From an uncultured Candidatus Saccharibacteria bacterium (GTDB lineage: Bacteria; Patescibacteriota; Minisyncoccia; Phycocordibacterales; XYD1-FULL-46-19): a DNA stretch of 58,949 bases. Position numbers and translations under genes: made by a program. The stretch spans positions 1 to 58,949 of the forward strand of contig CAZZPK010000004.1 in NCBI GenBank assembly GCA_964655995.1, in the 5' to 3' direction. Below, in pieces: positions 169 to 49,544 of this stretch (position 1 is its first letter; the number at the start of each line of letters is the position of its first letter). Under the pieces are notes generated by a model. It searched no databases. It was given only the letters and a program-made list of their open reading frames with translations, and was not told the DNA's origin.

Positions 169-211
169 GTTCCGTAATTCCGTATATACGTTATTACGGA
201 ACAATGGTTTT
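169..211 (+). terminator. Probable uvrA terminator hairpin
   Basis: GTTCCGTAAT (169-178) pairs with ATTACGGAAC (193-202). The loop contains the palindrome CGTATATACG. A T-run (GGTTTTT) follows at 205-211. Confidence 0.5.
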
Positions 212-248
212 TAGTCATTAATCTACGATCGTGGGATAACGGCTAAAA
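209..248. repeat. ACGATCGT-apex palindromic element, copy 1
   Basis: The ACGATCGT core is at 225-232. The flanking arms pair over about 20 positions with a few mismatches and T:G pairs. The flanks TTAGTC...GCTAAAAT are shared with copy 4. Confidence 0.7.
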
Positions 249-8760: not shown

Positions 8761-8761
8761 G

Positions 8762-8834
8762 TGGACCCTATCGGATTCGAACCGATGACCTCCGCTTTGC
8801 AAAAGCGGCGCTCTACCAACTAAGCTAAGGGCCC
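8762..8834 (-). tRNA. tRNA-Ala (anticodon UGC)
   Basis: Hand-folded cloverleaf GGGCCCT/AGGGTCC with the G3:U70 Ala identity pair, anticodon loop TTTGCAA and T-arm ATCGG-TTCGAAT-CCGAT. No CCA is encoded. Confidence 0.9.
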
Positions 8835-8842
8835 GTTTGTTT

Positions 8843-8871
8843 ACTATCTCATTTTTTTAGTCTTTGGACAA
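8843..8871 (-). promoter_or_regulatory. tRNA promoter TTGTCC-17-GATAGT, 8 nt before the mature 5' end
   Basis: It has the same architecture and the same AAAAAATGAGATAGT block as the second tRNA promoter. Confidence 0.5.
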
Positions 8872-8898
8872 GCGGTTTACCTTAAGTTTATTAAAGGG

Positions 8899-8971
8899 TG
8901 GACCCGAGGGGACTTGAACCCCTGACCCCTCCCATGCCATGGGAGTGCTCTACCAGCTGAGCTACGAGCCC
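8899..8971 (-). tRNA. tRNA-Ala (anticodon GGC)
   Basis: Acceptor stem GGGCTCG/CGGGTCC with G3:U70, anticodon loop ATGGCAT and T-arm AGGGG-TTCAAGT-CCCCT. No CCA is encoded. Confidence 0.88.
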
Positions 8972-8979
8972 ATGTGATC

Positions 8980-20442: not shown

Positions 20443-20506
20443 ATTCCTAATTTTTGACGACCGTCCGAGATTAGGAATGTGGATATTGATTGAATTTTAA
20501 ATTATT

Positions 20507-20534
20507 CCATCTGTCGACGATCGTAGCGAGATGG
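20507..20534. repeat. ACGATCGT-apex palindromic element, copy 2
   Basis: CCATCTGTCGACGA|TCGTAGCGAGATGG. The core is at 20517-20524, and 11 of 14 arm positions are complementary. Confidence 0.65.
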
Positions 20535-20540
20535 TATAGT

Positions 20541-20580
20541 TTTTTTAAAAATAAACCGCCCTTCGACAAGTTCAGGGCGG
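20541..20580 (-). terminator. Terminator of the 20601-20831 gene
   Basis: CCGCCCT (20556-20562) pairs with AGGGCGG (20574-20580). The minus strand then reads TTTATTTTTAAAAAA. Confidence 0.6.
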
Positions 20581-20600: not shown

Positions 20601-20831
20601 TTAGGCCACTTGGCCGGCGGGGCGGAAGATTTCCACTGGTTGCCAAATTTGGTTGACTACACAATTATGTGTGTCAGACCAAGCCAAGCTGAGACGGGAT
20701 AAGTCCCGTTCAATAGTTACCTGGATTGTCTGGTTATCGCGACGTATAGCCATGATAACTTTCCATTCCAAGCCGTTACAGTCCGTAACGACGTCTCTAT
20801 ACTTTAATCCCAGAAACTTCTCTTTAGTCAT
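20601..20831 (-). CDS. Hypothetical protein (76 aa)
   Basis: A GGAGGG RBS lies upstream of the ATG and a terminator lies downstream. Confidence 0.55.
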   Translation of the reverse strand: MTKEKFLGLKYRDVVTDCNGLEWKVIMAIRRDNQTIQVTIERDLSRLSLAWSDTHNCVVNQIWQPVEIFRPAGQVA

Positions 20832-20920
20832 TATTCCAACCCTCCAGATTTTCAGTCTGTTTTTAACCTAACATACCCCGGCTTTAATTGGAAGCCTTTT
20901 TCTGTTACCATAATTGCACC

Positions 20921-32858: not shown

Positions 32859-32860
32859 TA

Positions 32861-32894
32861 GTCTCTATTTTCTACGATCGTAGAAAATAGAGAC
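32861..32894. repeat. ACGATCGT-apex palindromic element, copy 3 (perfect 34-bp palindrome)
   Basis: GTCTCTATTTTCTACGA|TCGTAGAAAATAGAGAC, with 17 of 17 positions complementary. It lies in a divergent promoter region. Confidence 0.8.
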
Positions 32895-32965
32895 TTTGAG
32901 AAGAGTGGCAAATATAACCTTATTTTTCAACAACGAGACTAAGCCCCGTTGTATAAGAGACAGAA

Positions 32966-35943: not shown

Positions 35944-37971
35944 ATGGATAAACCGAAAACAAAAAAGGAGGACCTAATTGAAGATATTTTTGGTCACAAG
36001 ATACCAGATCCTTATCGTTGGTTGGAAGATAATAATTCCCAAGAAGTTAAAAATTGGATTAGACAACAAAATGATTACACGGATTCTTTTTTAAGAACCA
36101 AAGATTTTTTAACAATCTCCGAAGAGTTGATTAAAAATTATAAAACGGTCGATTTTTCAACCCCGTTTCCGACTAATGGATTTTATTTTTATAAAGAGCG
36201 TAAGCCTGGTGAAGATCAATTTACCCTTTATTTTAAACGAGATTTAGATGGTGAGGCGGTAAAACTAATTGACCCCAATGAGATTAGTAAAACTACCACC
36301 ATAAGTTATTGGTTTCCATCAAGGAGTGCCAAATATGTCGCTTACGGCCTCTCGGTTGATGGTGATGAAATGTCGACCCTACTCATTCGTGATGTTGAAA
36401 AAAATACAGATAGTGCCGATAAAATAGAACGCTGTCGCTACTCGTCTGTAACTTGGCTGCCGGACGATACCGGCTTTTTTTACACAAAAAATCCTAAACC
36501 AGGTGAGGTGCCTGAAGGTGAGGAGCATCTACATGAAAAAGTTTTTTTGCATATCATTGGGAAAAACCCCGACAATGATCAGTTGATTTTTGGAGCCAAT
36601 AGACCAAAAGACGATATGCTTGACCTGACTCTTTCTGTCGATGGTCGTTATTTAGCGATCGAGGTTGCTCAAAAATGGACCGAAAATGACATCTTTATAT
36701 ATGACACGCAAACAAAACAAACAACAGAATTGGTAGTGGGTAAAAAAGCCCAATTTAAAATATCTTTTGTTGCTAATCTTGCCTTGATTTACACTGATTA
36801 TCAGGCTAATAATTTTCGCCTCCTATCTATCAGCTTAGATAAACTACTTACTCCGATAGACAAGTGGCCAGAACTAGTGCCAGAAGATAAATATCCTCTA
36901 ATCGGCATATCAACCACCAAAGATTTAATCTTGTTAGAGTATATAGTTAATGCCTGTTCGCAACTCAAGATTGTAGACCACACCGGTCAGCCAGTTGATG
37001 GTTGGCAAATAGAGTTACCGCCATTTTCCACCATCGTTGGATTTGGCACTAATCGAGTCGAAAAAGATTTTTTCTTATCTATTACTTCTTTTACTTTTCC
37101 AAAAAAAATCTTTTATTTAAACAACGGAGCCAAGCAACTTTATCGCGAAGTCGGTAATCCAATTAATTCTGACGACTACGTTATCAGGCAAGAGTGGTGC
37201 GAGTCTAAAGATGGCACGAAAGTACCATCTTTTATCTTTCATCACAAGCAGATTGATTTGTCTAAACCACAGCCAACTATTTTATACGCTTACGGCGGAT
37301 TTGGTTCAAATGAAATGCCCAGCTTTTTGAAATCCTGGATCCCTTGGGTGTCGCGAGGCGGGTTATTTGTAATAGCTAATATCAGAGGCGGTGGAGAATT
37401 TGGCCGCGATTGGCATCAACAAGGTATTAAAGACAAGAAACAAAACTCCTTCGACGACTTCATATCCGTAGCGGAGTATTTAATTACCAAAGGCTATACT
37501 TCCAAAGAAAAGCTAGGTATCCTTGGTGGCAGTAACGGTGGATTGCTGGTATCAGCTGTTTCCGCCCAAAGGCCTGATTTATTTAAAGCGGTGTGCGCAA
37601 AAGTGCCGTTAACGGACATGGTGCGTTTTCTTAAGTTTGGTATTGCTATACGCTGGATCCATGAATATGGCAATCCCGAAACAGAGGAGGATTTGAGAAA
37701 TATATTAAAATGGAGTCCATATCACAACATCAAAAACAATGTTAATTACCCTTCTTATCTCTTTACTACGGCCGATAAAGACACTCGGGTTCACTCACTG
37801 CATGCGCGCAAGATGACCGCACTACTCCAAGAAGTATCCGACGACAATAAGGTGCTACTGTTTACCGAGTCACAGGCCGGCCACGGACCTGGCAAACCGA
37901 TTTCTAAAATTATCGAGGGACAGGCTTTAATTATCTCGTTTTTTAGTCAAGAACTAGGGTTGGAGATTTAA
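35944..37971 (+). CDS. Prolyl oligopeptidase (S9A family serine peptidase)
   Basis: N-terminal DPYRWLED, a beta-propeller region, the catalytic GGSNGGLL serine motif and a late AGHG. AT-rich gene. Confidence 0.88.
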   Translation: MDKPKTKKEDLIEDIFGHKIPDPYRWLEDNNSQEVKNWIRQQNDYTDSFLRTKDFLTISEELIKNYKTVDFSTPFPTNGFYFYKERKPGEDQFTLYFKRDLDGEAVKLIDPNEISKTTTISYWFPSRSAKYVAYGLSVDGDEMSTLLIRDVEKNTDSADKIERCRYSSVTWLPDDTGFFYTKNPKPGEVPEGEEHLHEKVFLHIIGKNPDNDQLIFGANRPKDDMLDLTLSVDGRYLAIEVAQKWTENDIFIYDTQTKQTTELVVGKKAQFKISFVANLALIYTDYQANNFRLLSISLDKLLTPIDKWPELVPEDKYPLIGISTTKDLILLEYIVNACSQLKIVDHTGQPVDGWQIELPPFSTIVGFGTNRVEKDFFLSITSFTFPKKIFYLNNGAKQLYREVGNPINSDDYVIRQEWCESKDGTKVPSFIFHHKQIDLSKPQPTILYAYGGFGSNEMPSFLKSWIPWVSRGGLFVIANIRGGGEFGRDWHQQGIKDKKQNSFDDFISVAEYLITKGYTSKEKLGILGGSNGGLLVSAVSAQRPDLFKAVCAKVPLTDMVRFLKFGIAIRWIHEYGNPETEEDLRNILKWSPYHNIKNNVNYPSYLFTTADKDTRVHSLHARKMTALLQEVSDDNKVLLFTESQAGHGPGKPISKIIEGQALIISFFSQELGLEI

Positions 37972-38041
37972 ATATACAATATAATATTTGCTACTTCTAG
38001 ATATTCATGATACTCTAAAACTAGAGGCCAAAGACCTATTC

Positions 38042-38380
38042 ATGGACACAAAGCGTTTCTTGTTCTTATGCTCCACCGAGGAGGGGATTTTTGCCCCACC
38101 ACCTCAAATCGACGAATGCTGGCATATGTTCATTCTATTCACGAGAGACTATGCCGAGTTCTGCGACGAGTATTTCGGTGAGTTTTTACACCACCACCCT
38201 CGCACCAAGGCAATGAAGTCCAAAGAGGGTGGACGTAAACGTGCACCACACACTCTCGAAGTTGCCCGTCGCTTGTTTGGGTCGATCTTGTCACAAAATT
38301 GGCAGTATACCCAAGGCCAGCTCGGTGCCTGTAATTGCAGTGGTTCCACTAACTGCCAGGATGATCCGTGCTGTCGGTAA
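38042..38380 (+). CDS. Small protein with CWHMFILFT...FLHHHP core and a Cys-rich C-terminal tail
   Basis: The core resembles proteins annotated as glycine-rich-domain-containing-protein-like, but this is from memory and not searched. The tail is GACNCSGSTNCQDDPCCR. The track ORF opens at TTG 37988. Confidence 0.45.
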   Translation: MDTKRFLFLCSTEEGIFAPPPQIDECWHMFILFTRDYAEFCDEYFGEFLHHHPRTKAMKSKEGGRKRAPHTLEVARRLFGSILSQNWQYTQGQLGACNCSGSTNCQDDPCCR

Positions 38381-38400
38381 ACTTCCGATTTCAATCAAAC

Positions 38401-38452
38401 TAGAGGGGGAATGTATGTAAATAAACCGACTACATCCCCCTCTAAATTTTTT
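38401..38452 (+). terminator. Strong terminator
   Basis: TAGAGGGGGA (38401-10) pairs with TCCCCCTCTA (38435-44), plus 4 inner pairs. TTTTTT follows. Confidence 0.7.
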
Positions 38453-38474
38453 AAATATGGTATTATAAAAAATT

Positions 38475-39008
38475 ATGAGTTTTTTACTTAAAAAAGTTGA
38501 AGAGATCAATCAATTAGAAGCCGGAAAAGCACTCGATCTTGGTAGTGGTAGTGGTAAAGATGTTCGCGAATTAGTCGCCAAAGGTTGGGAAGTTGAAGCG
38601 GTAGATCGTGAAGCAGGAGCAGTAAAATCTTTACAAAATATCCCAAATATAACCGCCATTGAGACAAATATAGAAACTTTTCTAATCAAAGAAAATTATT
38701 TTGATTTGATATTGGCTAGCAATTCGTTGCCTTTTATTGGCGACTCCAAAACCATTTTTGAGACACTTAAAAAAGCAGTCGCTGGTCTAAAAGATGGTGG
38801 GGTATTAGCTTTTAGTTTATTTGGACCTAAAGACGAATGGAATGGGGTTAAGCCTAACATTGCTTTTATTGAATATAACGAGATTTTAGATTTATTAAAT
38901 AAACTACCCCTTGAAATCCAATTTCAATCTACCGAGCTGGGTTACGGACCAACCATGGCCGGTCCTCTAAAATTTTGGCATATCCACAAATTTGTGTGTA
39001 AAAAATAA
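38475..39008 (+). CDS. Class I SAM-dependent methyltransferase (177 aa)
   Basis: Motif I ALDLGSGSGKDVRELVAKGWEVEAVD. Confidence 0.8.
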   Translation: MSFLLKKVEEINQLEAGKALDLGSGSGKDVRELVAKGWEVEAVDREAGAVKSLQNIPNITAIETNIETFLIKENYFDLILASNSLPFIGDSKTIFETLKKAVAGLKDGGVLAFSLFGPKDEWNGVKPNIAFIEYNEILDLLNKLPLEIQFQSTELGYGPTMAGPLKFWHIHKFVCKK

Positions 39009-39012
39009 GTCC

Positions 39013-39042
39013 TTGACTTTTAGGGGGAGTGTATGCTATAAT
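39013..39042 (+). promoter_or_regulatory. Promoter TTGACT-18-TATAAT
   Basis: It lies within the 17-mer CTTGACTTTTAGGGGGA, which recurs at 39451-39467. Confidence 0.55.
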
Positions 39043-39118
39043 AAGGGGTAGAAGTAGGGAAGTACCTTGTGATCTAAAGAAACCTTAACTTGGGGCCTTT
39101 GGGCCGAGGAGATGAGTA

Positions 39119-39373
39119 ATGCTGAAAGAAATGTTAGAAAATTGGGATTGGGATGATTTTAAGGATTGGTTCATATCCTGGTTTATCAGTTGGGCTGTTT
39201 CCACCCTTGTATTTGGATTTGTAATCCTGGTTGTATTGGCACTTGTGGTAACTATCACCCAAGAGCCGATACCAAGATCGTCTCTATTTGAGTGGAGCCG
39301 AATCGTCGGCTTCGTGACTGGCGCTGGGATTAGCAGTATGGCAATAACTTGGTGGAAAACATACAAAAGTTAA
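39119..39373 (+). CDS. Small membrane protein (84 aa)
   Basis: GAGGAG RBS, two TM helices, a promoter upstream and a terminator downstream. Confidence 0.55.
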   Translation: MLKEMLENWDWDDFKDWFISWFISWAVSTLVFGFVILVVLALVVTITQEPIPRSSLFEWSRIVGFVTGAGISSMAITWWKTYKS

Positions 39374-39377
39374 AGTA

Positions 39378-39420
39378 CACCCCTGGCGGCATCAATGCTA
39401 CCAGGGGTGATTTGGTTTTT
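39378..39420 (+). terminator. Terminator
   Basis: CACCCCTGG (39378-86) pairs with CCAGGGGTG (39401-09). ATTTGGTTTTT follows. Confidence 0.65.
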
Positions 39421-39477
39421 ATAAAATAACTAATTTTAATGTACAAGCCACTTGACTTTTAGGGGGATAATCTGGGT

Positions 39478-39507
39478 TTGCTTCTTATATAAAAGATGGT
39501 TTATAAT
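39478..39507 (+). promoter_or_regulatory. Promoter TTGCTT-18-TATAAT
   Basis: The -10 ends 7 nt before ATG 39515. Confidence 0.4.
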
Positions 39508-39514
39508 TAATCTA

Positions 39515-39853
39515 ATGGATAAAAAGTCTACAATTTTACTTTACGTAATGGGTATATTGATACTGGTCTCCGTTGGCGTAACTTTCTACCGTTATATGAT
39601 TTTAAAGGACTATCAAGTAATTACCGAGATTGAATGTAACCCAGAAATTGAAAATTGTTTTGTTAGGACAGAGGAGGATGGAACTATCAGTTATTACAAG
39701 ATAATCAGTCGTAATGCCGCTAATATTCCACTCTGTGACCCGGCACAAGATGAATCATGTCGAGCTTTGGTCTGTGAAGCAGAAGAACTTAAGTGCGAAA
39801 TCACTTTTTGCTCGCCAAAGGACACCCCAGAAGGTGAGACTTGCTCTCGCTAA
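39515..39853 (+). CDS. Membrane-anchored Cys-rich small protein (112 aa)
   Basis: An N-terminal TM, then 8 Cys residues (ECNPEIENC...LCDP..ESCRALVCEAEELKCEITFC...ETC). The track ORF start (TTG 39452) is actually a TTGACT box. Confidence 0.5.
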   Translation: MDKKSTILLYVMGILILVSVGVTFYRYMILKDYQVITEIECNPEIENCFVRTEEDGTISYYKIISRNAANIPLCDPAQDESCRALVCEAEELKCEITFCSPKDTPEGETCSR

Positions 39854-39862
39854 TACTGTATA

Positions 39863-39891
39863 TTGACAAATGACAACGATGGGTGTATAAT
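39863..39891 (+). promoter_or_regulatory. Consensus promoter TTGACA-17-TATAAT
   Basis: Exact consensus hexamers at 39863-68 and 39886-91. Confidence 0.6.
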
Positions 39892-39945
39892 TATAGACAG
39901 AGTGAACTTTGGGTATTTGACAACTAACAACAAGGGGGGTAGCCC

Positions 39946-40602
39946 GTGAATACTGTAATAGTGGTTTTTCTGCTTGTGTCGCTTGTTCTCTTTGGTTTAG
40001 GAGCCTGGCGACAAGAGAAAAGGTCACACAAGAGTGCGGTCTCAAGTCAGGAGGTGGCCGGCTTCTTTATGTGGCAGGCCATTGATCGCTGGGTCAACTA
40101 CTTGTTGTATCCGGCCATGATCACGATTTTTGGTCTGGTAAACGGCACATTAGTGATGATTGTGGTTACATTGTTTAGTAACACAATCTACGTTATCACT
40201 AATAATGCCACAGAGGGGGACTGGACCTTCATGTCTTGGTTTACCCTCTTACGGGACAATGGTTCTCACTTGTGGCCATTGCGCTATTGTCGAGCCCTAA
40301 AGAGGCTCCCTTGGTTGCGTCGGCCACTTATCAAGTCATTGGGACTTGTTAGGGCCCTACTTCGCGTAAAGGTTGGGCGGTTCTCCTTGGCCAATCCGAT
40401 AGGGTACTTATACCTCTCGGTCTGGAAGGATTCTTTTTACGCAATCAACTTTCTGTATCATAAGGAAGCGGATCTGCGTAAGCCACGGATCCTTGGCCTA
40501 TACCTGATCAGTCACATTATATGCAATATGGCCTGGGCGCCATTTGCAGGGCTGATATCGGTTGGGGTCGGGATAGCTCTCAAAGCTCTCCCGATTAGTT
40601 AA
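39946..40602 (+). CDS. Hypothetical polytopic membrane protein (218 aa)
   Basis: GTG start after an AAGGGGGG RBS. Several hydrophobic helices. Confidence 0.55.
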   Translation: MNTVIVVFLLVSLVLFGLGAWRQEKRSHKSAVSSQEVAGFFMWQAIDRWVNYLLYPAMITIFGLVNGTLVMIVVTLFSNTIYVITNNATEGDWTFMSWFTLLRDNGSHLWPLRYCRALKRLPWLRRPLIKSLGLVRALLRVKVGRFSLANPIGYLYLSVWKDSFYAINFLYHKEADLRKPRILGLYLISHIICNMAWAPFAGLISVGVGIALKALPIS

Positions 40603-40607
40603 AGACT

Positions 40608-40652
40608 AAGGGCGGTTACGTTTGTACAAACATTCGTGATCGCCCTTTTTGT
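40608..40652 (+). terminator. Terminator
   Basis: AAGGGCG (40608-14) pairs with CGCCCTT (40641-47). The loop contains the palindrome GTTTGTACAAAC. TTTTGTG follows. Confidence 0.55.
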
Positions 40653-40699
40653 GTTAATATGTTATTACAGTAATAAAATGGTTGAATTGTCTTCAAACT

Positions 40700-42028
40700 A
40701 TGGCAAATCTGGTAACTAAATTAAGAATATTTGCTCAAAAAATCAAGCCACAGAATAAATTCGAAATCCGCGATACTAAAAAGTATGGTAACGGGGTTTA
40801 CGCTAAAAGAGATATAAAAAAAGGGGAAGTAATATGGGTTTTAGATGGTAAAGAAATCTCTGAATATATTTGCGACAAAATGATCGCGGATGGACTTTTG
40901 AGTAATGACAACCCGCTCCAAATAGGGATGGATAATTATTTAATTTTAGATCAAATTTCTTTATCGTTTAATCATAGTTGCTCACCAAATGCGACACTCT
41001 ATGGACGGAGCACTTTGATGGCGATAAAAAATATAAAAAAAGGAGAGGAGATAACCTATGACTATTCGCTCACGGTACCGCCGTCTAATTATACTTTTAA
41101 CACCATGGATCATTGTCAATGTGGATCTGATCGCTGTCGACAAAGTCTAGGCAACGTACTAACAGTCCAAAAAAGTAAACTTAAACATCATGCCGAAAAT
41201 GGCCATTTACAAGATTTTATTGTAGAGGAGTTAAATAAAATTAACTTTTTCAGAGAGATAGCTACAATTGGTTTAGAGGATATTTACACCTCAAAAGAAG
41301 AGGCTATCATTGAATTAAAAAAGCGGTGGGAAAATGATGGGTTAAAACAAAAAGCGATTGCATTTATTGGCCGTGAATTTTTACCTAATTACTTTTTTGA
41401 TAAACCACATGCTATTTCAATTGAGGATGTGGCTACACCAAATCTGTCTACCCTCTCCTTCCGTGACGCAGCTAAAGAGATGGGCCTGGATCCGCTCCAT
41501 TTTGAATACTTAGAAGACATCTTTGTTACGAGAAATATTGATAAGTCATCGCTTGCTAGAATGACTTTTTACCATGGCCTAAATTCTAACAATGAGATGA
41601 TTACCACCCACAAAAAGGTCATTGACCTGTCAGGCAAAGAAGAGAAAAAACCTTTTAAAGAGATAAGCACCCTCTGGGGGGAGAATTTTGTTGACTTTCA
41701 TCATCGACTATTTTTTAAGCATTTTCCGGAAGCTAAGGTCTTTGATGGGTCTAAGTGGTATAAAAATAAGGGAACAAAAGCGAAAGAATATTATATTTTT
41801 GTTTTTGCTTTGTCTATTTGCCACGGCGTTCTTTTTGAAACATTTTTTGACAATGGATACGAGGAGGGATTTACCAAGGAAGTCGCTGCGCCAGCATTTC
41901 AATTTGTCACCGAGTATTTTGGTGTAAAGCCTTTAGTGGTGCCAATTATACCCTTAAAATCAATTCCTGGATCCATAGCGGAGAAATACTGGTGGTGTTA
42001 CCCGGAATATATTAAAATAAGTATATGA
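40700..42028 (+). CDS. SET-domain protein fused to a ~280-aa uncharacterised C-terminal domain
   Basis: SET core: GNGVYAKRDIKKGEVI, FNHSCSPNA, GEEITYDYS. Post-SET Cys cluster: CQCGSDRCRQ. No motif was recognised in the remainder. Confidence 0.75.
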   Translation: MANLVTKLRIFAQKIKPQNKFEIRDTKKYGNGVYAKRDIKKGEVIWVLDGKEISEYICDKMIADGLLSNDNPLQIGMDNYLILDQISLSFNHSCSPNATLYGRSTLMAIKNIKKGEEITYDYSLTVPPSNYTFNTMDHCQCGSDRCRQSLGNVLTVQKSKLKHHAENGHLQDFIVEELNKINFFREIATIGLEDIYTSKEEAIIELKKRWENDGLKQKAIAFIGREFLPNYFFDKPHAISIEDVATPNLSTLSFRDAAKEMGLDPLHFEYLEDIFVTRNIDKSSLARMTFYHGLNSNNEMITTHKKVIDLSGKEEKKPFKEISTLWGENFVDFHHRLFFKHFPEAKVFDGSKWYKNKGTKAKEYYIFVFALSICHGVLFETFFDNGYEEGFTKEVAAPAFQFVTEYFGVKPLVVPIIPLKSIPGSIAEKYWWCYPEYIKISI

Positions 42029-43719
42029 GTTTTAATCTAGTTACAAATTTAGAGGCTTGTTATGACTTTGTAGTAAACGACGCCCCGTTGTCTCTGGTTT
42101 ATTACTCTCACTTTACAACAATCATTATTTCACTTTTAGTGGGAATTTTGGTTCTAAGAAACAGCCGTCCTCCAATAACTGGTAAGGTGTTATTTAGCTT
42201 ATCTGTTTTTTTTAGCCTTTGGGTGGTCATAGACCTGATAACCTGGACCAGCTACAACAGCACATATTATATGTTTTTCTGGTCACTTTTTGGTGTATTA
42301 ACAGCTCTGGTTTATCTATTTTGTATATATTTTGCTTATGTTTTTATAAATAAGAGAGACATTTCGTTTGCAGTACTTTCTGTTTTTTCTATATTAATTG
42401 CTCCAATTGTTTTTTTGATTCCTACAAATTATAACTTAAGTGGTTTTTTGGTGATTGATTGTATTTCCATAGAAGAAGTAATTTACACTAACTATTTTCT
42501 ACTTTTTGGGGCACTCGCTTTTGTTTGGGTTGCTATATCAGCATTCATAGGTTACAGAAAAACAAAAGAAAATGTCCTTAAAAAACAGATTATTTTAATG
42601 ACTGTTGGTTTAGAGTTATTTATCACTATCTTTTTTACAGCTACATTTTTAGACAGTTATCTAGTAAATATAGGCGTAACTGGGGATTATATGTTAGGTA
42701 ACTATGGCCTCTTTGGGATGGCTATATTTATGGCCTTTTTGGCATATCTGATTGTCCAATTTAAGGCTTTTAACATTAAACTTATTGGAGCGAATGTGTT
42801 GGTTATTACTTTGGCTGGGCTGGTTGGGTCATTGCTCTTCGTGGTGCAAAGTACCACCTCTTTGATTATTGCGGGGGTTACCTTTATTTTGTCAGTGGTA
42901 TTTGGTTATTTCCTCATCCGTTCTGTCCGTAAGGAGGTGGAGGCGCGGGAGTATATTCAGGAGCTGGCGGGGGAGTTGGCCACCTCACGCGACCAACTCT
43001 TAGTCGCTAATGAGAAGCTACAGGAGCTCGATAAGCAGAAAACGGAGTTTGTCTCCATCGCCTCACACCAGCTCCGCTCGCCGCTGACGGCGATCAAGGG
43101 CTACTCCTCAATGATTTTGGAGGGCTCGTTTGGCGAGATCAACGGTAAGACTAAGGACGCTGTGGACAAGATCTTCCAGTCTAGTCAGCGCCTCGTCAAC
43201 ATTATCGAGGACTTTCTTAACGTTACTCGTATCGAGCTCGGCACGATGAAGTATGAGATGAGCGAGATCAACGTTAAGGACATGACTAAAAAAATTATTG
43301 AGGAGCTCCGGCCAAATATCGAGGACAAGGGACTTGGTGTCAGTTTTAAAGCCGATAAGGGCAACCACACCGTTTATGCCGATGCGGGCAAAATTAGCCA
43401 AGTGATAGGTAATATTATCGATAACGCCATCAAATACACTCCCGAGGGATCTATCGATATCACTCTGACTGGACAAAACGGTACCATACTACTAGCGGTT
43501 AAAGACAGTGGGGTGGGTATACCCAAAGAAACATTACCTAAGTTGTTTGAAAAGTTTATTCGGGCCGACGACGCCGGCAAGACCAATATCTCAGGTACCG
43601 GCCTGGGCCTATACGTCGCCAAACAGATCGTAGAGGCTCACAGGGGCCGTATTTGGGCCGAGTCCGACGGCAAAGGCCACGGCTCCACCTTCTTTATCGA
43701 GTTTAAAAGGAGGGGGTAA
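42025..43719 (+). CDS. Sensor histidine kinase with a multi-TM (about 7-8 helix) N-terminal sensor; no adjacent response regulator
   Basis: H-box HQLRSPLTAIKGYS, N-box NIIDNAIKYTP, DSGVGIP, GTGLGLYVAKQIVEAHRG. Confidence 0.9.
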   Translation: MSFNLVTNLEACYDFVVNDAPLSLVYYSHFTTIIISLLVGILVLRNSRPPITGKVLFSLSVFFSLWVVIDLITWTSYNSTYYMFFWSLFGVLTALVYLFCIYFAYVFINKRDISFAVLSVFSILIAPIVFLIPTNYNLSGFLVIDCISIEEVIYTNYFLLFGALAFVWVAISAFIGYRKTKENVLKKQIILMTVGLELFITIFFTATFLDSYLVNIGVTGDYMLGNYGLFGMAIFMAFLAYLIVQFKAFNIKLIGANVLVITLAGLVGSLLFVVQSTTSLIIAGVTFILSVVFGYFLIRSVRKEVEAREYIQELAGELATSRDQLLVANEKLQELDKQKTEFVSIASHQLRSPLTAIKGYSSMILEGSFGEINGKTKDAVDKIFQSSQRLVNIIEDFLNVTRIELGTMKYEMSEINVKDMTKKIIEELRPNIEDKGLGVSFKADKGNHTVYADAGKISQVIGNIIDNAIKYTPEGSIDITLTGQNGTILLAVKDSGVGIPKETLPKLFEKFIRADDAGKTNISGTGLGLYVAKQIVEAHRGRIWAESDGKGHGSTFFIEFKRRG

Positions 43720-43721
43720 TA

Positions 43722-44234
43722 ATGAGGCCAGTCTCACAAATTTTTAAAGACGACCAGGATGATCGGAAAGATCCAACTATTGGTGTTGATTTAAAAATAC
43801 TACAAAAAGTATCTGACAGAGATAAAAAGAGACGAAAAGAGGTTGAATTATTGCTTAAGAAAAAATTAATTAAAACCGGGGCGGATTTTTATAAAGCGGC
43901 GATGATTTATCATCATACCCCAGGTTATGGAGATGGTCTCAAGGCACCAAAGTCGACTCTTAAAAACTATAAAATTGCTTTAAAGCTGGCCCAAAAGAGC
44001 ATCGATAAAAAATACGAAAAAGCTAAATGGTTATTTGCGGCTGTCACCGATAGATTATTGACTAATCAAGGCAAACCGCAAAAGTTTGGCACGCAGTATC
44101 GCAAAAAAGATCAAAGTAGTCCCTGGGAGCTTTTACCCGTAAACCCAAAAACTACCGATACTGAGCGCAAAAAGTATAACGTCCCAACCTTAAAACAAAC
44201 CCAGAATCGCCTTAAAAAGCTAAATCGTATATAA
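43722..44234 (+). CDS. Hypothetical basic protein (170 aa)
   Basis: ORF tightly coupled to the kinase gene. No motif assigned. Confidence 0.5.
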   Translation: MRPVSQIFKDDQDDRKDPTIGVDLKILQKVSDRDKKRRKEVELLLKKKLIKTGADFYKAAMIYHHTPGYGDGLKAPKSTLKNYKIALKLAQKSIDKKYEKAKWLFAAVTDRLLTNQGKPQKFGTQYRKKDQSSPWELLPVNPKTTDTERKKYNVPTLKQTQNRLKKLNRI

Positions 44235-44242
44235 TAGTCGGT

Positions 44243-45190
44243 ATGTCCGAGAAGATTATGTTAAGCGGGGTTAAGCCGACGGGGCGGCCGCATATTGGCA
44301 ATTATTTTGGCGCCATGCGCCAGTTTGTGGATCTCGCTAAGCAAAATAGTGCTTACGTGATGATCGCCGACTTGCACGCTCTCACCACCTTACACAACGC
44401 CTCCGAGCTTAAGCAAAATACTTTAGACTTAGCGCTTGACTACCTCGCCATCGGCCTCGACCCGGCTAAAGTCACCATTTTTAAGCAGTCTGAGGTGTCG
44501 GCTCACGCGGAGCTGGCCTGGATTTTTAATACGCTCGTTACCATCCCTTATCTCCAGCGCGCCCACGCCTACAAAGATGCCGAGGCTAAAGGTAAGGAGC
44601 TCGACGCCGGTACTTTTACTTACCCGGTGCTGATGGCGGCGGATATTTTACTCTACAACACCGATGTGGTGCCGGTAGGCCGCGATCAAAAACAGCATGT
44701 GGAGTACGCTCGCGACATCGCCGAGAAGTTTAATCGCACTTATGGCGAAACGTTTAAACTGCCCGAGCCGCTCATTTTAAGCGACGTTGAGACCGTGCCG
44801 GGTATTGACGGGCAGAAGATGAGCAAGAGCTATAACAACACTATCCCGCTTTTTGCCAGTGATGAAGAAATAGCCAAATTAGTAATGGCGATAGTGACCG
44901 ACTCGAGCGGCGAGCGCCCGGAGAATGTGTATCAAATCCATAAACTGTTTAAGTCAGAGAGTGAGTTAACCAATTTGTATGGGGAGAAAAAAGGTAAATA
45001 TAAAGAGCTTAAAGAGGCGCTGATCGAAGACGTTAAAGCGTTTATTAAACCGCTGCGCGAGAGGCGAGAGGAGTTGGCTAAAAATCCGGGCGAAGTTATT
45101 AAAATGTTAGAGGAGGGTAGTAACCGGGCGCGCGAGTCTGCTACAATAAAGTTAAACGAGGTAAAACAAAAAGTCGGTTTGGATCTCTAA
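44243..45190 (+). CDS. trpS: Tryptophan--tRNA ligase
   Basis: GVKPTGRPHIGNYFGA, GRDQKQHVE, KMSKS. Confidence 0.93.
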   Translation: MSEKIMLSGVKPTGRPHIGNYFGAMRQFVDLAKQNSAYVMIADLHALTTLHNASELKQNTLDLALDYLAIGLDPAKVTIFKQSEVSAHAELAWIFNTLVTIPYLQRAHAYKDAEAKGKELDAGTFTYPVLMAADILLYNTDVVPVGRDQKQHVEYARDIAEKFNRTYGETFKLPEPLILSDVETVPGIDGQKMSKSYNNTIPLFASDEEIAKLVMAIVTDSSGERPENVYQIHKLFKSESELTNLYGEKKGKYKELKEALIEDVKAFIKPLRERREELAKNPGEVIKMLEEGSNRARESATIKLNEVKQKVGLDL

Positions 45191-45199
45191 TCAAACTAA

Positions 45200-46975
45200 A
45201 TGGCTAAAATTAAATTAAATGACATCCAACTTGGGATAAAGATCCTAAGTCGTTATTTAGCTCCTTACAAAAACCAATTGATATTGGTGTGGGCTTTAAG
45301 TTGCGCTTCGGCATTAACTAATGGTCTTATACCATACATTACCGGTAAATTAGTTGATAATATAATCTCCCCAACTACCGTTAATTTTATCAATTTAACT
45401 TTGGCCTCTTATTTTGTGCTACTAGGTTTGTGGGTTTTGATTCAGATTTTTGCTTATTTAATTGATTGGAAAAATGGATATGAAGCCGACCGCTTATCGG
45501 CTATTATTTATTCCGAATACGTCTCTTTGGGGATGAGTTACATACTGCTGTTACCATTGTCATTCCATAAAAAAACTAAATCGGGTCAGGTCGGTAGTAA
45601 AATCCAAAAAACAGCCCAATCTTTTTATAATATCGGTAAGGTGGTTATAGATATACTGCCCCAGCTTTTAACTATAATAATCGCCGTAATCTTGTTGGCC
45701 ACTATAAATATTAAGCTTTTAGGAATCCTACTCATTGGCCTATGTTTATACTTAGCGATTTTATTTAAAGTCGTACCTAAAAGCGGCAAATTGCAGAGGG
45801 AAATATACGAGACCTGGAGTAAGGCCTGGGGAGACGCCTGGGACGCCCTCAATAATATAACTACCGTAAAACACGCCTCGACGGAGGATTATGAGAAGAA
45901 AAAAATATACAAAAGCTTTTTTGGTAAGGCTTTTAACGTTGACCTAAAACTGATGGCAATTTGGAATAATTTAGGTTTTTACCAGAGAGTAATAATTTTG
46001 ATAACCCAGTTTACTATTTTCTTTTTCTCAATTATTTATATTCAAAAAGGTTTAATGACGATTGGCGAGTTGGTTGCTTTTAATGCTTATGCCGCTATGT
46101 TTTTTGGTCCTTTTGTCACGCTGGGCCGACAATGGCAGGATTTTCAAAATGGTATTATTTTTGCCATCGAATCAGAAAAAATACTGTCTTTGCCGATGGA
46201 GTCATACGAAAATAAAGACTCGATAACCAAAGTCGTAAATGGCGCTGTTAATTTTAAAAACGTCGATTATTATTACGAAAAAAGCAAACCCGTGCTCAAG
46301 GATATTAATTTTGAGGTCAAACCGGGCGAAGTGGTGGCCCTGGTAGGCAAATCCGGGGAAGGTAAGACCACTTTGGTTGATTTACTGTCAAACTATCATT
46401 CGGCCAAAGTGGGGAAGATTTTGATTGATAATATTGATATTAAAAAATACAATCTTAAGTCTTTGCGCTCCCAGATTGCGGTGGTGCCGCAGGAGGTGGT
46501 GCTATTTAACGACACGATCAAAAAGAACATCCAATACGGCAGCTTTGGCACTACCGACAAGCAGGTGGAGGAGGCGGCGCGGAAGGCGCATGCGCTCGAG
46601 TTTATTGAGAAGTTTCCTAAAAAATGGAAGCAGATTGTGGGCGAGCGGGGAGTTAAACTCTCCGTGGGTCAAAAACAGCGTGTCGCCATTGCCCGTGCTA
46701 TTTTACGCGATCCTAAGATTTTAATTTTAGACGAGCCGACCTCGGCGCTCGATGCCGAGTCGGAGAGCTTTATTACCAAGTCGCTTGAGGAGCTGATGCA
46801 GGGTCGCACCACCTTTATCATCGCTCACCGGCTCTCCACCGTACGCCGGGCCGATAAGATCTTGGTCTTTAAAGACGGCACCATTGTGGAGCAGGGTAAG
46901 CACGACGAGCTTATTAACCTCCCTAACGGCGTTTACCGCCGACTCTACGAGCTCCAAATCGGCTTACATCAGTAG
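45200..46975 (+). CDS. ABC exporter, fused permease/ATPase (MsbA-like type I)
   Basis: A six-TM N-terminal half, Walker A GKSGEGKTT, signature LSVGQKQRVAIARA and Walker B ILILDEPTSALD. Confidence 0.9.
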   Translation: MAKIKLNDIQLGIKILSRYLAPYKNQLILVWALSCASALTNGLIPYITGKLVDNIISPTTVNFINLTLASYFVLLGLWVLIQIFAYLIDWKNGYEADRLSAIIYSEYVSLGMSYILLLPLSFHKKTKSGQVGSKIQKTAQSFYNIGKVVIDILPQLLTIIIAVILLATINIKLLGILLIGLCLYLAILFKVVPKSGKLQREIYETWSKAWGDAWDALNNITTVKHASTEDYEKKKIYKSFFGKAFNVDLKLMAIWNNLGFYQRVIILITQFTIFFFSIIYIQKGLMTIGELVAFNAYAAMFFGPFVTLGRQWQDFQNGIIFAIESEKILSLPMESYENKDSITKVVNGAVNFKNVDYYYEKSKPVLKDINFEVKPGEVVALVGKSGEGKTTLVDLLSNYHSAKVGKILIDNIDIKKYNLKSLRSQIAVVPQEVVLFNDTIKKNIQYGSFGTTDKQVEEAARKAHALEFIEKFPKKWKQIVGERGVKLSVGQKQRVAIARAILRDPKILILDEPTSALDAESESFITKSLEELMQGRTTFIIAHRLSTVRRADKILVFKDGTIVEQGKHDELINLPNGVYRRLYELQIGLHQ

Positions 46976-47031
46976 AATTAACGTGATACATTACAAATAA
47001 GCGTTCATACCTATGTGACGCAATCACGGTT

Positions 47032-47061
47032 GCCGTCCCTTTCTAGAGGAGACGGCTTTTT
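47032..47061 (+). terminator. Terminator of the ABC exporter gene
   Basis: GCCGTC (47032-37) pairs with GACGGC (47051-56). TTTTT follows. Confidence 0.6.
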
Positions 47062-47073
47062 CTTCAATATAAA

Positions 47074-47109
47074 TTAGTCGTTATTCCACGATCGTAGATT
47101 AACTGCTAA
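47074..47109. repeat. ACGATCGT-apex palindromic element, copy 4
   Basis: The core is at 47088-47095. TTAGTCGTTATTCC|core|AGATTAACTGCTAA. It overlaps a promoter-like TAAAAT (47107-12) that ends 6 nt before ATG 47119. Confidence 0.7.
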
Positions 47110-47118
47110 AATATAGCT

Positions 47119-47676
47119 ATGAGAAAAATAAGAAGTAAGACCAAGAAAAAGATATTACTCATACTTGAAGCTGGAATAGCATTAGGACTGAGTAGCCATA
47201 ATTTTAGGCAGCAAAGATTTATTTTAAAACAAATTCCCAAAGAATTATCTAGTATAAATAAATACGAATTGATAAAAAATATCAAAGATTTTTACAATAA
47301 AAACCTAATAAATTATCAAGAAAAAACTGACGGGAATATAGAAGTAATTTTAACAGAAAAAGGCAGGGAACATGCCTTACTTTACTCATTAGATACAATA
47401 CAAATTAAAAAACCTAACACCTGGAATAGTTGCTGGCATTTAGTCCTGTTTGATATCCCAGAGAAGAAACGCAAGGGGCGCGATGCTTTGCGAGAAAAAT
47501 TAAAGGAGCTGGGATTTTACGAATGGCAAAAGTCGGCTTTTATTTACCCTTATCCCTGCAGCAAAGAGGTAGAATTTATTGTCGAAATTTTTGACCTGAG
47601 ACCTTATGTCAGATATGCCGAATTGCGTCATCCAACCAATGAGTCAGAATTAAAACTTAAATTTAAATTGTATTAG
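47119..47676 (+). CDS. Winged-helix + Cas2-fold/PaaX-C-like domain protein (putative transcriptional regulator)
   Basis: The C-terminal WHLVLFDIPEKKRKGRDALREKLKELGFYEWQKSAFIYPY matches the W-x-LV-x-FDIPE...R..LR..L...GF pattern of PaaX C-terminal and Cas2-like folds. Confidence 0.65.
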   Translation: MRKIRSKTKKKILLILEAGIALGLSSHNFRQQRFILKQIPKELSSINKYELIKNIKDFYNKNLINYQEKTDGNIEVILTEKGREHALLYSLDTIQIKKPNTWNSCWHLVLFDIPEKKRKGRDALREKLKELGFYEWQKSAFIYPYPCSKEVEFIVEIFDLRPYVRYAELRHPTNESELKLKFKLY

Positions 47677-47684
47677 TTGTATTA

Positions 47685-47726
47685 GGATTAGCTGTTAACC
47701 CACGATCGTGAGTTAATGGATAATTT
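47685..47726. repeat. ACGATCGT-apex palindromic element, copy 5
   Basis: The core is at 47702-47709. TTAGCTGTTAACCC|core|GAGTTAATGGATAA. About 21 arm positions pair, including wobbles. Confidence 0.7.
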
Positions 47727-47744
47727 ACCAAATAATCTAGACTT

Positions 47745-47760
47745 GTTACATTAATGTAAC
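47745..47760. promoter_or_regulatory. Perfect 16-bp palindrome GTTACATTAATGTAAC (operator-like)
   Basis: The sequence equals its own reverse complement. It is intergenic, about 110 nt upstream of the aspS promoter. Confidence 0.35.
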
Positions 47761-47869
47761 GGCGCCGAATGGCCCCTATGATCTTAGGACTAGGGAGTCT
47801 GCGCGCCTAGACAATGGCCAAGTCGGTGGTATAGAAAGATATTAAAGTTATGTATAATATTTCAGGTAC

Positions 47870-47897
47870 TTGACAAATTTTGGGGACCTGCTATACT
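47870..47897 (+). promoter_or_regulatory. Promoter TTGACA-16-TATACT for the aspS leader
   Basis: Hexamers at 47870-75 and 47892-97. Confidence 0.6.
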
Positions 47898-47903
47898 GGG
47901 GAG

Positions 47904-48119
47904 TAGCCGAGGTTATGGGTCCTTACCTGGCTCTCGCGTCGAAGGACCCCCGATGGTGGCCGGATGCCGCCCCCGATGGCGCTAGGGACGCGCTGGACTC
48001 TTAGGAAAAGACGCCTGTTTAGACGACCAAACAGGTGGTACTCCTGAGAGGACCAATTAACTGGTCGTCTCCCACGACACGGGCCCGCAGCAAACTTGCT
48101 GACGGGCCCTATTTTTATT
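47904..48119 (+). promoter_or_regulatory. Structured ~215-nt aspS leader ending in an intrinsic terminator (attenuator or riboswitch-like; T-box only tentatively)
   Basis: Mutually exclusive helices: CCTGTTT (48014-20) with AAACAGG (48029-35), versus AGACGACCA (48021-29) with TGGTCGTCT (48062-70). An AGGTGGTAC element lies at 48033-41. The terminator is at 48081-48119. Confidence 0.6.
48081..48119 (+). terminator. Intrinsic terminator inside the aspS leader
   Basis: GGGCCCGCAGCA (48081-92) pairs with TGCTG-a-CGGGCCC (97-109), giving 12 bp with one bulge. TATTTTTATT follows, 30 nt before the aspS ATG. Confidence 0.75.
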
Positions 48120-48149
48120 ACCAGCAGATTGTGTTATAAATAAAAGACT

Positions 48150-49544
48150 ATGCAGCGGACGTATATTAAAGATTTAAAGGGTAAAACCGGCGGGGAGGTT
48201 TTGATTAAGGCTTGGGTGGATATTAGGCGCGATCAGGGTAAGATGGTCTTTTTTGACTTCCGCGATATGAGCGGTAAGGTGCAGGGGGTGGTATTACCTG
48301 GTAGTCCGGCAATGGAGACAGCCAAGGAGGTGCGCTCCGAGTGGGTGCTGGCCATCACCGGCAAAGTCAATGCTCGACCGGAGAAAAACGTTAAAGCCGA
48401 CGTTTTAAACGGCGATATTGAATTAGAGATTACTAATATAGAAGTTTTAAACAAAGCGGAGACCCCACCGTTTGAGCTTAATGACAATACTTTTGGGATT
48501 AATGAGGAGGTACGACTTAAATATCGCTATTTGGATTTACGGTCGGAGCGGATGCAAAAAAATATCCGCTTCCGTCACCAAGTAATCAAACATTTGCGCG
48601 ACGAGCTTAATAATCGCGGCTTTATTGAGGTAGAGACACCGATTTTAACCAAATCAACGCCCGAGGGCGCCCGCGACTATGTGGTACCGGCTCGTCTTTA
48701 CCCCGGCAATTTTTACGCTTTACCTCAAGCGCCACAGCAATATAAGCAACTTTTGATGGTGGGTGGAGTAGAGAAGTACTTCCAAATTGCGCGCTGTTTC
48801 CGCGATGAGGATACGCGGGGCGATCGCCAGCCGGAGTTTACTCAGCTCGATATGGAACTCTCATTTGTCGACCGCGAGGATGTGATGCGCATCAATGAAG
48901 AACTCTTAATTTCCGTAGTTAAAACTTTAGCGCCGGAGAAAAAGATCCAAACTATCCCATTCCCTCGCCTTACTTACCAAGAGGCGATGGAGCAGTATGG
49001 TACCGACAGGCCCGACTTACGAGAGGATAAAAATGATCCTAACTTACTGGCCTTTTGTTGGATCATCGACTTCCCATTTTTTGAAAAGACTGATCAAGGC
49101 AGTTGGACCTTTACCCACAACCCCTTCTCCCGCGCTTTACCCGAGCACGAGGAGTGGTTAAAAAATAAAGAAAATATCGATAAAATTATTACCACTCAAT
49201 ACGACGTAGCCTTAAACGGCTTTGAGATCGGCGGCGGCAGTATCCGCAATCATAACCCGGAGCTCCTTAAAGCGGTGTTAGAGATTATCGGCTTTACGCC
49301 CGAGCAAATGGAGTCAAGCTTTGGCCATATGCTTAAGGCGTTTACGTTTGGCACGCCGCCTCATGGTGGCATTGCCTGGGGCTTGGATCGCTTTGTCGCT
49401 CTCCTCTTAAACGAGCCTAATATCCGCGAGGTGATCCCGTTTGCCAAAACCGGCGAGGGCAAAGACTTGATGATGGATTCTCCCGCCCCAATCTCCGAAA
49501 CTCAATTAAAAGAGCTTAATATTAAATTAACTGATGCCAAATGA
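48150..49544 (+). CDS. aspS: Aspartate--tRNA ligase, bacterial-type core lacking the GAD insertion domain
   Basis: An N-terminal OB fold, motif 2 FRDEDTRGDRQPEFTQLDMELSF and motif 3 GGIAWGLDRFV. Only about 10 residues separate TDRPDLR from CWIIDFPFF. Confidence 0.92.
   Translation: MQRTYIKDLKGKTGGEVLIKAWVDIRRDQGKMVFFDFRDMSGKVQGVVLPGSPAMETAKEVRSEWVLAITGKVNARPEKNVKADVLNGDIELEITNIEVLNKAETPPFELNDNTFGINEEVRLKYRYLDLRSERMQKNIRFRHQVIKHLRDELNNRGFIEVETPILTKSTPEGARDYVVPARLYPGNFYALPQAPQQYKQLLMVGGVEKYFQIARCFRDEDTRGDRQPEFTQLDMELSFVDREDVMRINEELLISVVKTLAPEKKIQTIPFPRLTYQEAMEQYGTDRPDLREDKNDPNLLAFCWIIDFPFFEKTDQGSWTFTHNPFSRALPEHEEWLKNKENIDKIITTQYDVALNGFEIGGGSIRNHNPELLKAVLEIIGFTPEQMESSFGHMLKAFTFGTPPHGGIAWGLDRFVALLLNEPNIREVIPFAKTGEGKDLMMDSPAPISETQLKELNIKLTDAK

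Follow-up and report, generated by a model that had tools for sequence, protein, structure and literature searches.

The window analysed here is a stretch of 58,949 nucleotides (nt), positions 1 to 58,949 of contig CAZZPK010000004.1 (assembly GCA_964655995.1), from an uncultured Candidatus Saccharibacteria bacterium. Our subject is a gene for a protein of 185 amino acids (aa) at 47119..47676 on the plus strand, together with the two long, imperfect palindromes between which it lies. We refer to it as the mini-PaaX gene; its product is predicted to combine a winged helix with a Cas2-like PaaX_M domain. The palindromes, listed here without strand, are an upstream site, U (copy 4; 47074..47109), with the core ACGATCGT at 47088-47095 and arms TTAGTCGTTATTCC and AGATTAACTGCTAA, and a downstream site, D (copy 5; 47685..47726), with the same core at 47702-47709 and arms TTAGCTGTTAACCC and GAGTTAATGGATAA. 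The center of U falls 27 nt 5' of the ATG and that of D 29 nt 3' of the stop codon, and the two sites share one arm class. An earlier, sequence-only reading of this DNA had described copies 4 and 5 of a palindrome family as bracketing the gene, and these distances bear it out.

The palindromes are intergenic and over-represented

Exact matches to ACGATCGT start at positions 225, 20517, 32874, 47088, and 47702, which makes five copies in the whole window compared to an expectation of 0.58, a count that none of 100 dinucleotide shuffles reached. None of the five overlaps an open reading frame (ORF), and because only ~7.5% of the window is intergenic, the probability that all five would fall between genes is ~2e-6. 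The five intergenic palindromes of the sequence-only reading are thus far from a chance set. Its counts of arm complementarity were also approximately right, with our recount giving 11, 11, 15, 10, and 11 complementary positions of the 16 outside the core in copies 1 to 5, respectively. The likeness that it had seen between copies 1, 4, and 5 beyond the palindrome proved to be a common arm pattern, TTAGYN-RTTAWYCY...RRRWTAAY-NGNTAA, which has no other match in the window. When a position weight matrix (PWM) trained solely on 124 sites from other genomes was run on the window, its top five ranks were the five ACGATCGT sites, at 21-26 bits versus a shuffle maximum of 16.5 bits; U scored 23.6 bits and D 22.9 bits.

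The 185-aa protein and its family

The protein matched Pfam PaaX_M (PF20803) over residues 100-175 with an E-value of 2.3e-21 and 76 bits, against a cut-off of 24, while a Pfam search with residues 1-99 gave no match. The sequence-only reading had called the domain PaaX_C-like, a label that needs correcting, since the actual match is to the middle, Cas2-like domain of PaaX. An AlphaFold2 (AF2) model with a predicted local distance difference test score (pLDDT) of 79 overall placed helices at residues 7-24, 29-44, and 48-60 and a beta-wing at residues 64-78 in the N-terminal part, followed by a Cas2-like beta-alpha-beta-beta-alpha-beta arrangement at residues 100-181. The best match found by Foldseek in the Protein Data Bank (PDB) was E. 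coli PaaX (8a39), aligned over 193 columns that cover both domains, and the next matches were Cas2 proteins and Rv0674. The C-terminal domain of PaaX (PaaX_C) is missing, as the protein stops at residue 185, where the effector-binding domain would begin, and the PaaX equivalog model TIGR02277 gave 29.9 bits against a cut-off of 264.55.

The NCBI cas2 model, TIGR01573, scored 26.2 bits against a cut-off of 24.5, less than 2 bits above it, and it is because this model just clears its cut-off that family members are named "Cas2" in records. Many members are publicly annotated as "CRISPR-associated endonuclease Cas2" (CRISPR, clustered regularly interspaced short palindromic repeats) though they are predicted winged helix-turn-helix (wHTH) fusions without CRISPR context. 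No cas1, other cas gene, or CRISPR array was present in the window or in the neighborhoods inspected, nor was there any regularly spaced repeat family in the window. No HUH, Y1, DDE, serine-recombinase, or tyrosine-recombinase domain was detected in the 185-aa protein, which had only PaaX_M and Cas2 matches; PADLOC and PHROGs likewise returned solely Cas2-type or insignificant matches. The family-invariant residues include neither a His-x-His motif nor a Tyr. They do include D112, which corresponds to the Cas2 Asp; this residue is lost in Rv0674, and the alignment with SSO8090 includes the Asp.

The family comprises 1399 clusters at 50% identity (E<=1e-10). Its named members all belong to Patescibacteria (Vogelbacteria, Paceibacterota), and metagenome-assembled genomes (MAGs) often carry at least two copies. 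The genes neighboring family members encode tRNA synthetases, an ABC transporter, and cell-wall and replication functions; no paa genes were found among them.

Palindromes bracket homologous genes

Homologous loci were gathered from assemblies and metagenomes, yielding 73 non-redundant loci with both flanks, and the best palindrome in the 150-200 nt on each side of the gene was sought blind, with no motif supplied. A palindrome with an nC....Gn core was returned upstream at 58/73 loci, downstream at 60/73, and on both sides at 50/73. A similarity search recovered the missing partner at 17 more loci, such that both sites are present at 67 of the 73. The core is always nC....Gn and usually nCGATCGn: ACGATCGT is the commonest form, and the set also includes GCGATCGC, CCGATCGG, TCGATCGA, GCKATMGC, ACGRYCGT, GCTGGAGC, and GCATATGC. 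The arms vary by locus, and both sites of one gene have matching arms. Even paralogues within one MAG follow this rule; locus L009 has its own core (GCATATGC) and its own arms compared to locus L003, and a site with L003-type arms lies on another contig of the same MAG, 5' of dnaE.

The downstream site occurs independently of the adjacent gene, which may be convergent or co-directional. At locus L049, an identical second copy of the site (44/44 positions) lies 3' of a second gene, which encodes an AAA_33 kinase, and the pair therefore marks the ends of an operon. At L026, a site pair at 1321 and 2322 (GCTATCGC and GCGATAGC, with arms AATGTTCCCC) surrounds a BtpA-family gene rather than a PaaX_M gene, so bracketing is not limited to the regulator's own gene.

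Protein residues co-vary with site positions

The mutual information between alignment columns and half-site positions divided the protein into two parts. Residues 49, 53, 54, 57, 58, and 61, all within predicted helix 3, vary together with arm positions -11 to -17, and the residue combination (Q/E/D)(Y/H)L(Y/H)R goes with TATACCA arms in proteins whose cores are of four different types. Where helix alpha-1 of the Cas2-like domain begins, residues 118 and 122 track the outer core base instead, with Arg118 accompanying A-cores in 27/31 cases and Lys118 accompanying G-cores in 30/33. When residues 114-123 were left out of the tree, ~20 changes of the core base and ~18 of residue 118 were counted on it. 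This apparent split, in which N-terminal residues go with the arms and C-terminal residues with the core, would be hard to explain otherwise than by recognition of the site by the protein.

The symmetry of the sites was assessed by comparing half-sites. Within a site, one arm and the reverse complement of the other had an identity of 0.67; comparison across the upstream and downstream sites of a locus gave 0.67-0.70, and comparison between loci gave 0.37. Conservation is highest at positions -18 to -12 from the center, whereas positions -8 to -5 are complementary in just 42-51% of sites. Since all four half-sites of a locus resemble each other to the same degree and complementarity does not extend to the inner spacers, we read each palindrome as a dimer operator rather than a hairpin; the pattern fits what four noisy copies of one half-site, read by a symmetric dimer, would be expected to look like. 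The sequence-only reading had favored selection on a hairpin or cruciform, but half-sites in different sites resemble each other as closely as the arms within a site (0.67 in both cases), and the 4-5 positions next to the core are non-complementary. It had also seen in copy 1 a hint of G:U pairs in plus-strand RNA. Family-wide, 107 mismatches of the G:T type fall on one strand compared to 103 on its complement, and with no strand bias the hint is not supported.

Promoter position and proposed mechanism

At the homologous loci, the centers of upstream sites lie 18-90 nt 5' of the start codon. Hexamers resembling a -10 element occur at +14 from the center in upstream and downstream sites alike, where they are within the arm and often read TGGTATAAT; at +27, they occur in upstream sites only, and downstream sites usually have no extra -10. 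In the window, the hexamer TAAAAT at 47107-47112 stands 6 nt before the ATG and no Shine-Dalgarno sequence is present, which suggests a leaderless mRNA. The -10 element sits 6-9 nt before an ATG lacking a Shine-Dalgarno sequence at several loci, and L002, L003, and L097 are like the window. Since U overlaps the -10 element, autorepression is implied.

Two other explanations of the motif were considered and rejected. CIRCE/HrcA was prompted by the outer TTAG...CTAA and a nearby dnaK gene; however, the spacing is 24 nt rather than 9 and the sequence differs. A promoter-only (-35/-10) interpretation would require TTATTC and TAAAAT to act together across a spacing of 20 nt, and sites also lie between convergent genes.

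E. coli PaaX binds the operator TGATTC-N27-GAATCA, which spans ~39 bp, and represses its own promoter through steric hindrance of RNA polymerase (PMC9493321). The geometry of the mini-PaaX sites is like that of the PaaX operator, with arms at +/-12-18 and a span of ~38-40 bp. Taken together, we think it probable that each palindrome is bound by its cognate member of a family of small PaaX-like autoregulators, widespread in Patescibacteria, whose sites stand at both gene ends. Paired operators of an autoregulated repressor were one of the options raised by the sequence-only reading, and this option is well supported by the retention of the pair at 67/73 loci, the co-variation of arms with protein, and the overlap of U with the -10 element.

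In the mechanism that we propose, one dimer would occupy each ~40-bp site. Its two winged helices would read the locus-specific outer arms, ~12-18 bp from the center, while its Cas2-like domains at the dyad would read the core nC....Gn, usually nCGATCGn. Protein bound to U would occlude the -10 and core promoter and thereby shut off transcription of its own gene. D lies just past the transcription unit, and we infer that it would act either as an auxiliary operator, raising promoter occupancy by cooperative binding or looping, or as a roadblock to polymerases entering from the 3' side.

Several points weigh against this interpretation. The winged helix is a prediction of the AF2 model, whose confidence in that region is moderate (pLDDT 50-74). 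The mini-PaaX protein has no recognizable sensor domain, and its invariant D112 may retain an enzymatic role. Co-variation scores can be inflated by shared ancestry, and all the steps that lead from cognate site to repression are inferred. The distances between U and D, which range from 598 to 768 bp, show no periodicity at 10, 10.5, or 11 bp. Finally, sites unaccompanied by a family gene (solo sites) are frequently found 3' of stop codons or in the gap between two convergent genes, positions that are unusual for an operator.

Solo sites in the window

Three of the ACGATCGT copies are solo sites, all unstranded. Solo site 1 (copy 1; 209..248; TTAGTCATTAATCT-ACGATCGT-GGGATAACGGCTAA; 21.4 bits) has the arm class of U and D. 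On one side of it is the 3' end of a uvrA-like gene, which carries a hairpin, and on the other side is a terminator that belongs to a small ORF on the minus strand. Judging from its arms, it is likely a further target of the window's own 185-aa protein. Copy 2 (20499..20542; ATTCCA-N7-ACGATCGT-N7-TGGTATAG) is the best-scoring site in the window at 26.2 bits, and its arm class is that found around the orthologous genes of relatives L002, L003, and L097. Copy 3 (32860..32895; AGTCTCTATTTTCT-ACGATCGT-AGAAAATAGAGACT; 21.4 bits) is a perfect 36-bp palindrome of a third arm class, located in a divergent intergenic region 5' of a CYTH-domain gene.

An additional candidate at 20443..20478 (unstranded; core ACGACCGT at 20457-20464; arms TTCCTAAT.../...ATTAGGAA) has 11/16 arm pairs and a differing arm class. 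Its PWM score of 13.1 bits is under the shuffle maximum, and its core is also used at homologous loci L017, L074, and L006. It is a probable sixth site that the sequence-only reading overlooked, and the protein that binds it would presumably be a paralogue whose gene lies outside the window. More generally, paralogues with genes in other parts of the genome probably target the sites at 20457, 20517, and 32874, whose arms differ from those of U and D. An isolated left arm, TTAGTCATTATTCC, occurs on the plus strand at 20824..20837; it matches 14/14 arm positions, has AACCCTCC at its center, and lacks a core, and it may be a half-site or a relic.

Across the window and the other genomes, solo sites have mixed positions, some 57-97 nt 5' of genes and others between convergent genes. 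Some occur in close pairs 60-94 bp apart with differing arms (4485/4579 in L009 and 20457/20517 in the window); such a pair may be an emptied bracket or a place at which two paralogues act.

Alternative explanations

The sites could instead be boundary or roadblock elements that mark and insulate the ends of transcription units in a compact genome, by stopping read-through or convergent polymerases or through local DNA organization, with the protein binding them and autoregulation being secondary. This explanation, which we regard as unlikely, accounts for sites at both ends of a unit, including the two-gene unit at L049 and the BtpA gene at L026, and for the window's solo sites between convergent genes beside terminators. 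In line with it, no other intrinsic terminator is predicted 3' of the 185-aa gene. However, U is positioned relative to the -10 element and the ATG rather than to the end of the upstream gene, which in the window has its own terminator hairpin ahead of U, and other solo sites lie 57-97 nt 5' of genes, as ordinary operators do.

Comparison with relatives revealed turnover at this locus. The nearest relative found, L097, encodes AspRS and TrpRS proteins 96% and 97% identical to the window's, respectively, and its DNA is 95.4% identical up to the stop codon of the ABC transporter gene and 86% identical from the aspS leader promoter on (window 46976-47869 was compared to L097 2909-3688 and L096 4769-4975). 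Between these breakpoints, L097 has a family gene in inverted orientation with TACCA-type arms, whose product is 55% identical to the window's protein, with 36% identity in the N-terminal half and 75% in the C-terminal half. Neither gene nor site was present at this locus in L096 (AspRS 91% identical), L098, or L099. At 47826-47834 of the window, GGTGGTATAG looks like TGGTATAG, the right arm in the site class of the relatives' orthologous cassettes, and ACAATGGC stands at the expected core position; judged by this resemblance, it may be a relic of an earlier cassette.

This turnover keeps alive the view that the site-gene-site unit is a selfish or recombining cassette, in which the Cas2-like domain would be an active nuclease or recombination factor at the core and the solo sites would be its scars or targets. 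Such a unit would be inverted, excised, or spread, and in that respect it would be REP/RAYT-like or homing-like. We hold this view to be quite improbable. The same goes for its most specific form, in which a self-recognizing wHTH-Cas2 cassette reads the core through its Cas2-derived domain and cuts or nicks it at the dyad with the invariant Asp; if that were true, the unit would be a site-specific nuclease system whose specificities diversify rapidly, and it could invert, excise, or replace alleles. Several observations would suit a cassette. A relative with 95% identical flanking DNA has the gene inverted and only 55% identical at the protein level, while the relative with 91% AspRS identity is empty; the Cas2 Asp is invariant in the family yet lost in Rv0674; the palindromic flanks are direct and inverted repeats of each other; and closely spaced pairs of solo sites exist. 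However, the protein has no domain of the HUH, Y1, DDE, serine-recombinase, or tyrosine-recombinase type, and the replacement breakpoints lie off the sites, at the edges of the neighboring genes (the stop codon of the ABC transporter gene on one side, the aspS promoter on the other), as fits ordinary homologous exchange. General hyper-variability of the cassette was also rejected, since in other locus pairs the gene is as conserved as its flanks or more so. The border breakpoints and this conservation elsewhere therefore point to allele replacement and loss by ordinary recombination at a variable locus rather than self-mobility. In addition, the empty loci retain no solo site, and the 59 kb hold just three copies of a single arm class. 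The parallel that the sequence-only reading had drawn with repetitive extragenic palindromic (REP) elements flanking the gene for their REP-associated tyrosine transposase (RAYT) fails for similar reasons, namely the lack of an HUH/Y1 domain, the three same-arm copies in 59 kb, and the gene-specific nature of the sites.

The sites do all fold as hairpins better than shuffled sequences, with z-scores of -2.5 to -7.0, although any palindrome would fold. The hairpins of U and D are weak, with free energies of -8.5 and -12.8 kcal/mol, respectively, and have no T-run. Their stems, like those of the other sites, are AT-rich with internal mismatches, unlike the window's real terminators, which are GC-rich hairpins followed by T-runs; a terminator scan of the window called none of the sites. 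A search of the whole window with Rfam at gathering thresholds returned two tRNA-Ala genes only. A protein-independent structural role, as RNA hairpins (terminators or stabilizers) or DNA cruciforms, is thus highly improbable despite the folding, the A-rich 5' and T-rich 3' borders of many family sites, and the location of D at the 3' end of the gene, because positions -5 to -8 pair too rarely, G:U pairs show no strand bias, complementarity within a site equals similarity across sites, U precedes the -10 element and so falls outside the gene's own transcript, and in a hairpin the GAUC of the core would form an unpaired loop with 2 bp closing it, which leaves the conservation of the core and its co-variation with residue 118 unexplained.

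Other features of the window

Beyond the mini-PaaX gene, the segment 47870-48149 has a near-consensus promoter (TTGACA-16-TATACT with TG), followed by a GC-rich, strongly structured 247-nt leader (z-score -5.4), which ends in a terminator-like hairpin and T-run just 5' of aspS. This leader is 86% conserved in L097 and absent or different in L096, and an Rfam search of 47720-48170 at E<=1 gave no match. A T-box was considered and rejected, as the GGUGGUAC motif is not kept in L097. At the other end of the window, the minus strand at 325-453 carries an ORF of ~43 aa that is membrane-protein-like and convergent with the uvrA-like gene. It has a perfect 12/12 sigma-70-type promoter at 517-489 and a clean terminator at 257-285, and solo site 1 lies between the two 3' ends. 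The GC content of 36000-48000, a block that includes the trpS-ABC-cassette region, is ~0.40 compared to ~0.52 on both sides. The two tRNA-Ala genes (anticodons TGC and GGC) are ordinary and lie in tandem on the minus strand at 8761-8972.

Implications and comparison with known systems

Most Patescibacteria (the candidate phyla radiation, CPR) are uncultivated; their genomes are tiny, and hardly any of their regulators have been characterized. The correspondence described here amounts to a testable protein-to-DNA code for ~1,400 clusters, specifying which helix reads which part of a 40-bp site, and it indicates that the recognition of specific DNA sequences may involve a Cas2-type domain. A cognate site at both ends of the gene, near-universal in the family, is something that textbook autoregulation does not explain. 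Many public annotations of CPR proteins as "CRISPR-associated Cas2" appear to be wrong. The natural protein/site pairs, each with distinct arms, could also serve as orthogonal repressor-operator parts. Our search of the literature found no account of a ACGATCGT element, of dual-end cognate sites, of core reading by a Cas2-like domain, or of such specificity diversity; the last three appear to be undescribed.

Compared to Cas2, the C-terminal domain of mini-PaaX retains the beta-alpha-beta-beta-alpha-beta fold and the YD/FD...Q(K/R)S(V/A)F signature. However, Cas2 is a stand-alone protein of ~90 aa encoded beside cas1 and an array, whereas mini-PaaX is a 185-aa protein with a predicted winged helix fused to this domain. 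The resemblance to REP/RAYT systems lies in intergenic imperfect palindromes, two of which flank a gene for a protein with a ferredoxin-like fold. In contrast with RAYTs, mini-PaaX has neither an HUH motif nor a catalytic Tyr, its sites have a low copy number within 59 kb, their arms differ per gene, and the upstream copy is built into the promoter.

In lambdoid immunity regions (OL/OR), a repressor gene likewise stands between two sets of its own operators, and repressor and operators co-evolve as exchangeable modules of differing specificity, just as the module here differs between near-identical genomes. The mini-PaaX genes differ in having a housekeeping context with no phage genes nearby, another protein fold, and a single gene with a single site at each end. 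The auxiliary operators of LacI/GalR and DeoR-type repressors lie hundreds of bp away, inside or beyond the transcription unit, and act by looping, and they provide an analogy only. LacI/GalR operators resemble the mini-PaaX sites in being symmetric, with a conserved central step (CG) and arms that vary among paralogues. However, both the LacI/GalR and the DeoR-type proteins have an unrelated fold, their sites measure 16-20 bp rather than 40 bp, and they act by looping, while the spacing of the mini-PaaX sites is unphased.

In its predicted architecture, mini-PaaX resembles PaaX itself, the GntR-type repressor of phenylacetate catabolism in E. coli and Pseudomonas (PDB 8a39, 3l09), which has a winged helix followed by a Cas2-like dimerization domain. 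PaaX binds a pair of short inverted repeats, separated by ~27 bp and spanning ~39 bp, and represses itself (PMC9493321). In contrast with PaaX, mini-PaaX lacks PaaX_C, the phenylacetyl-CoA sensor, and has no paa genes nearby; its sites are conserved at a central core whose sequence co-varies with the Cas2-like domain; and nearly all of its genes have a second cognate site at the 3' end. It also exists as many paralogues with differing specificities, in Patescibacteria only as far as seen. The system would work like PaaX minus its sensor domain and is not a PaaX orthologue.

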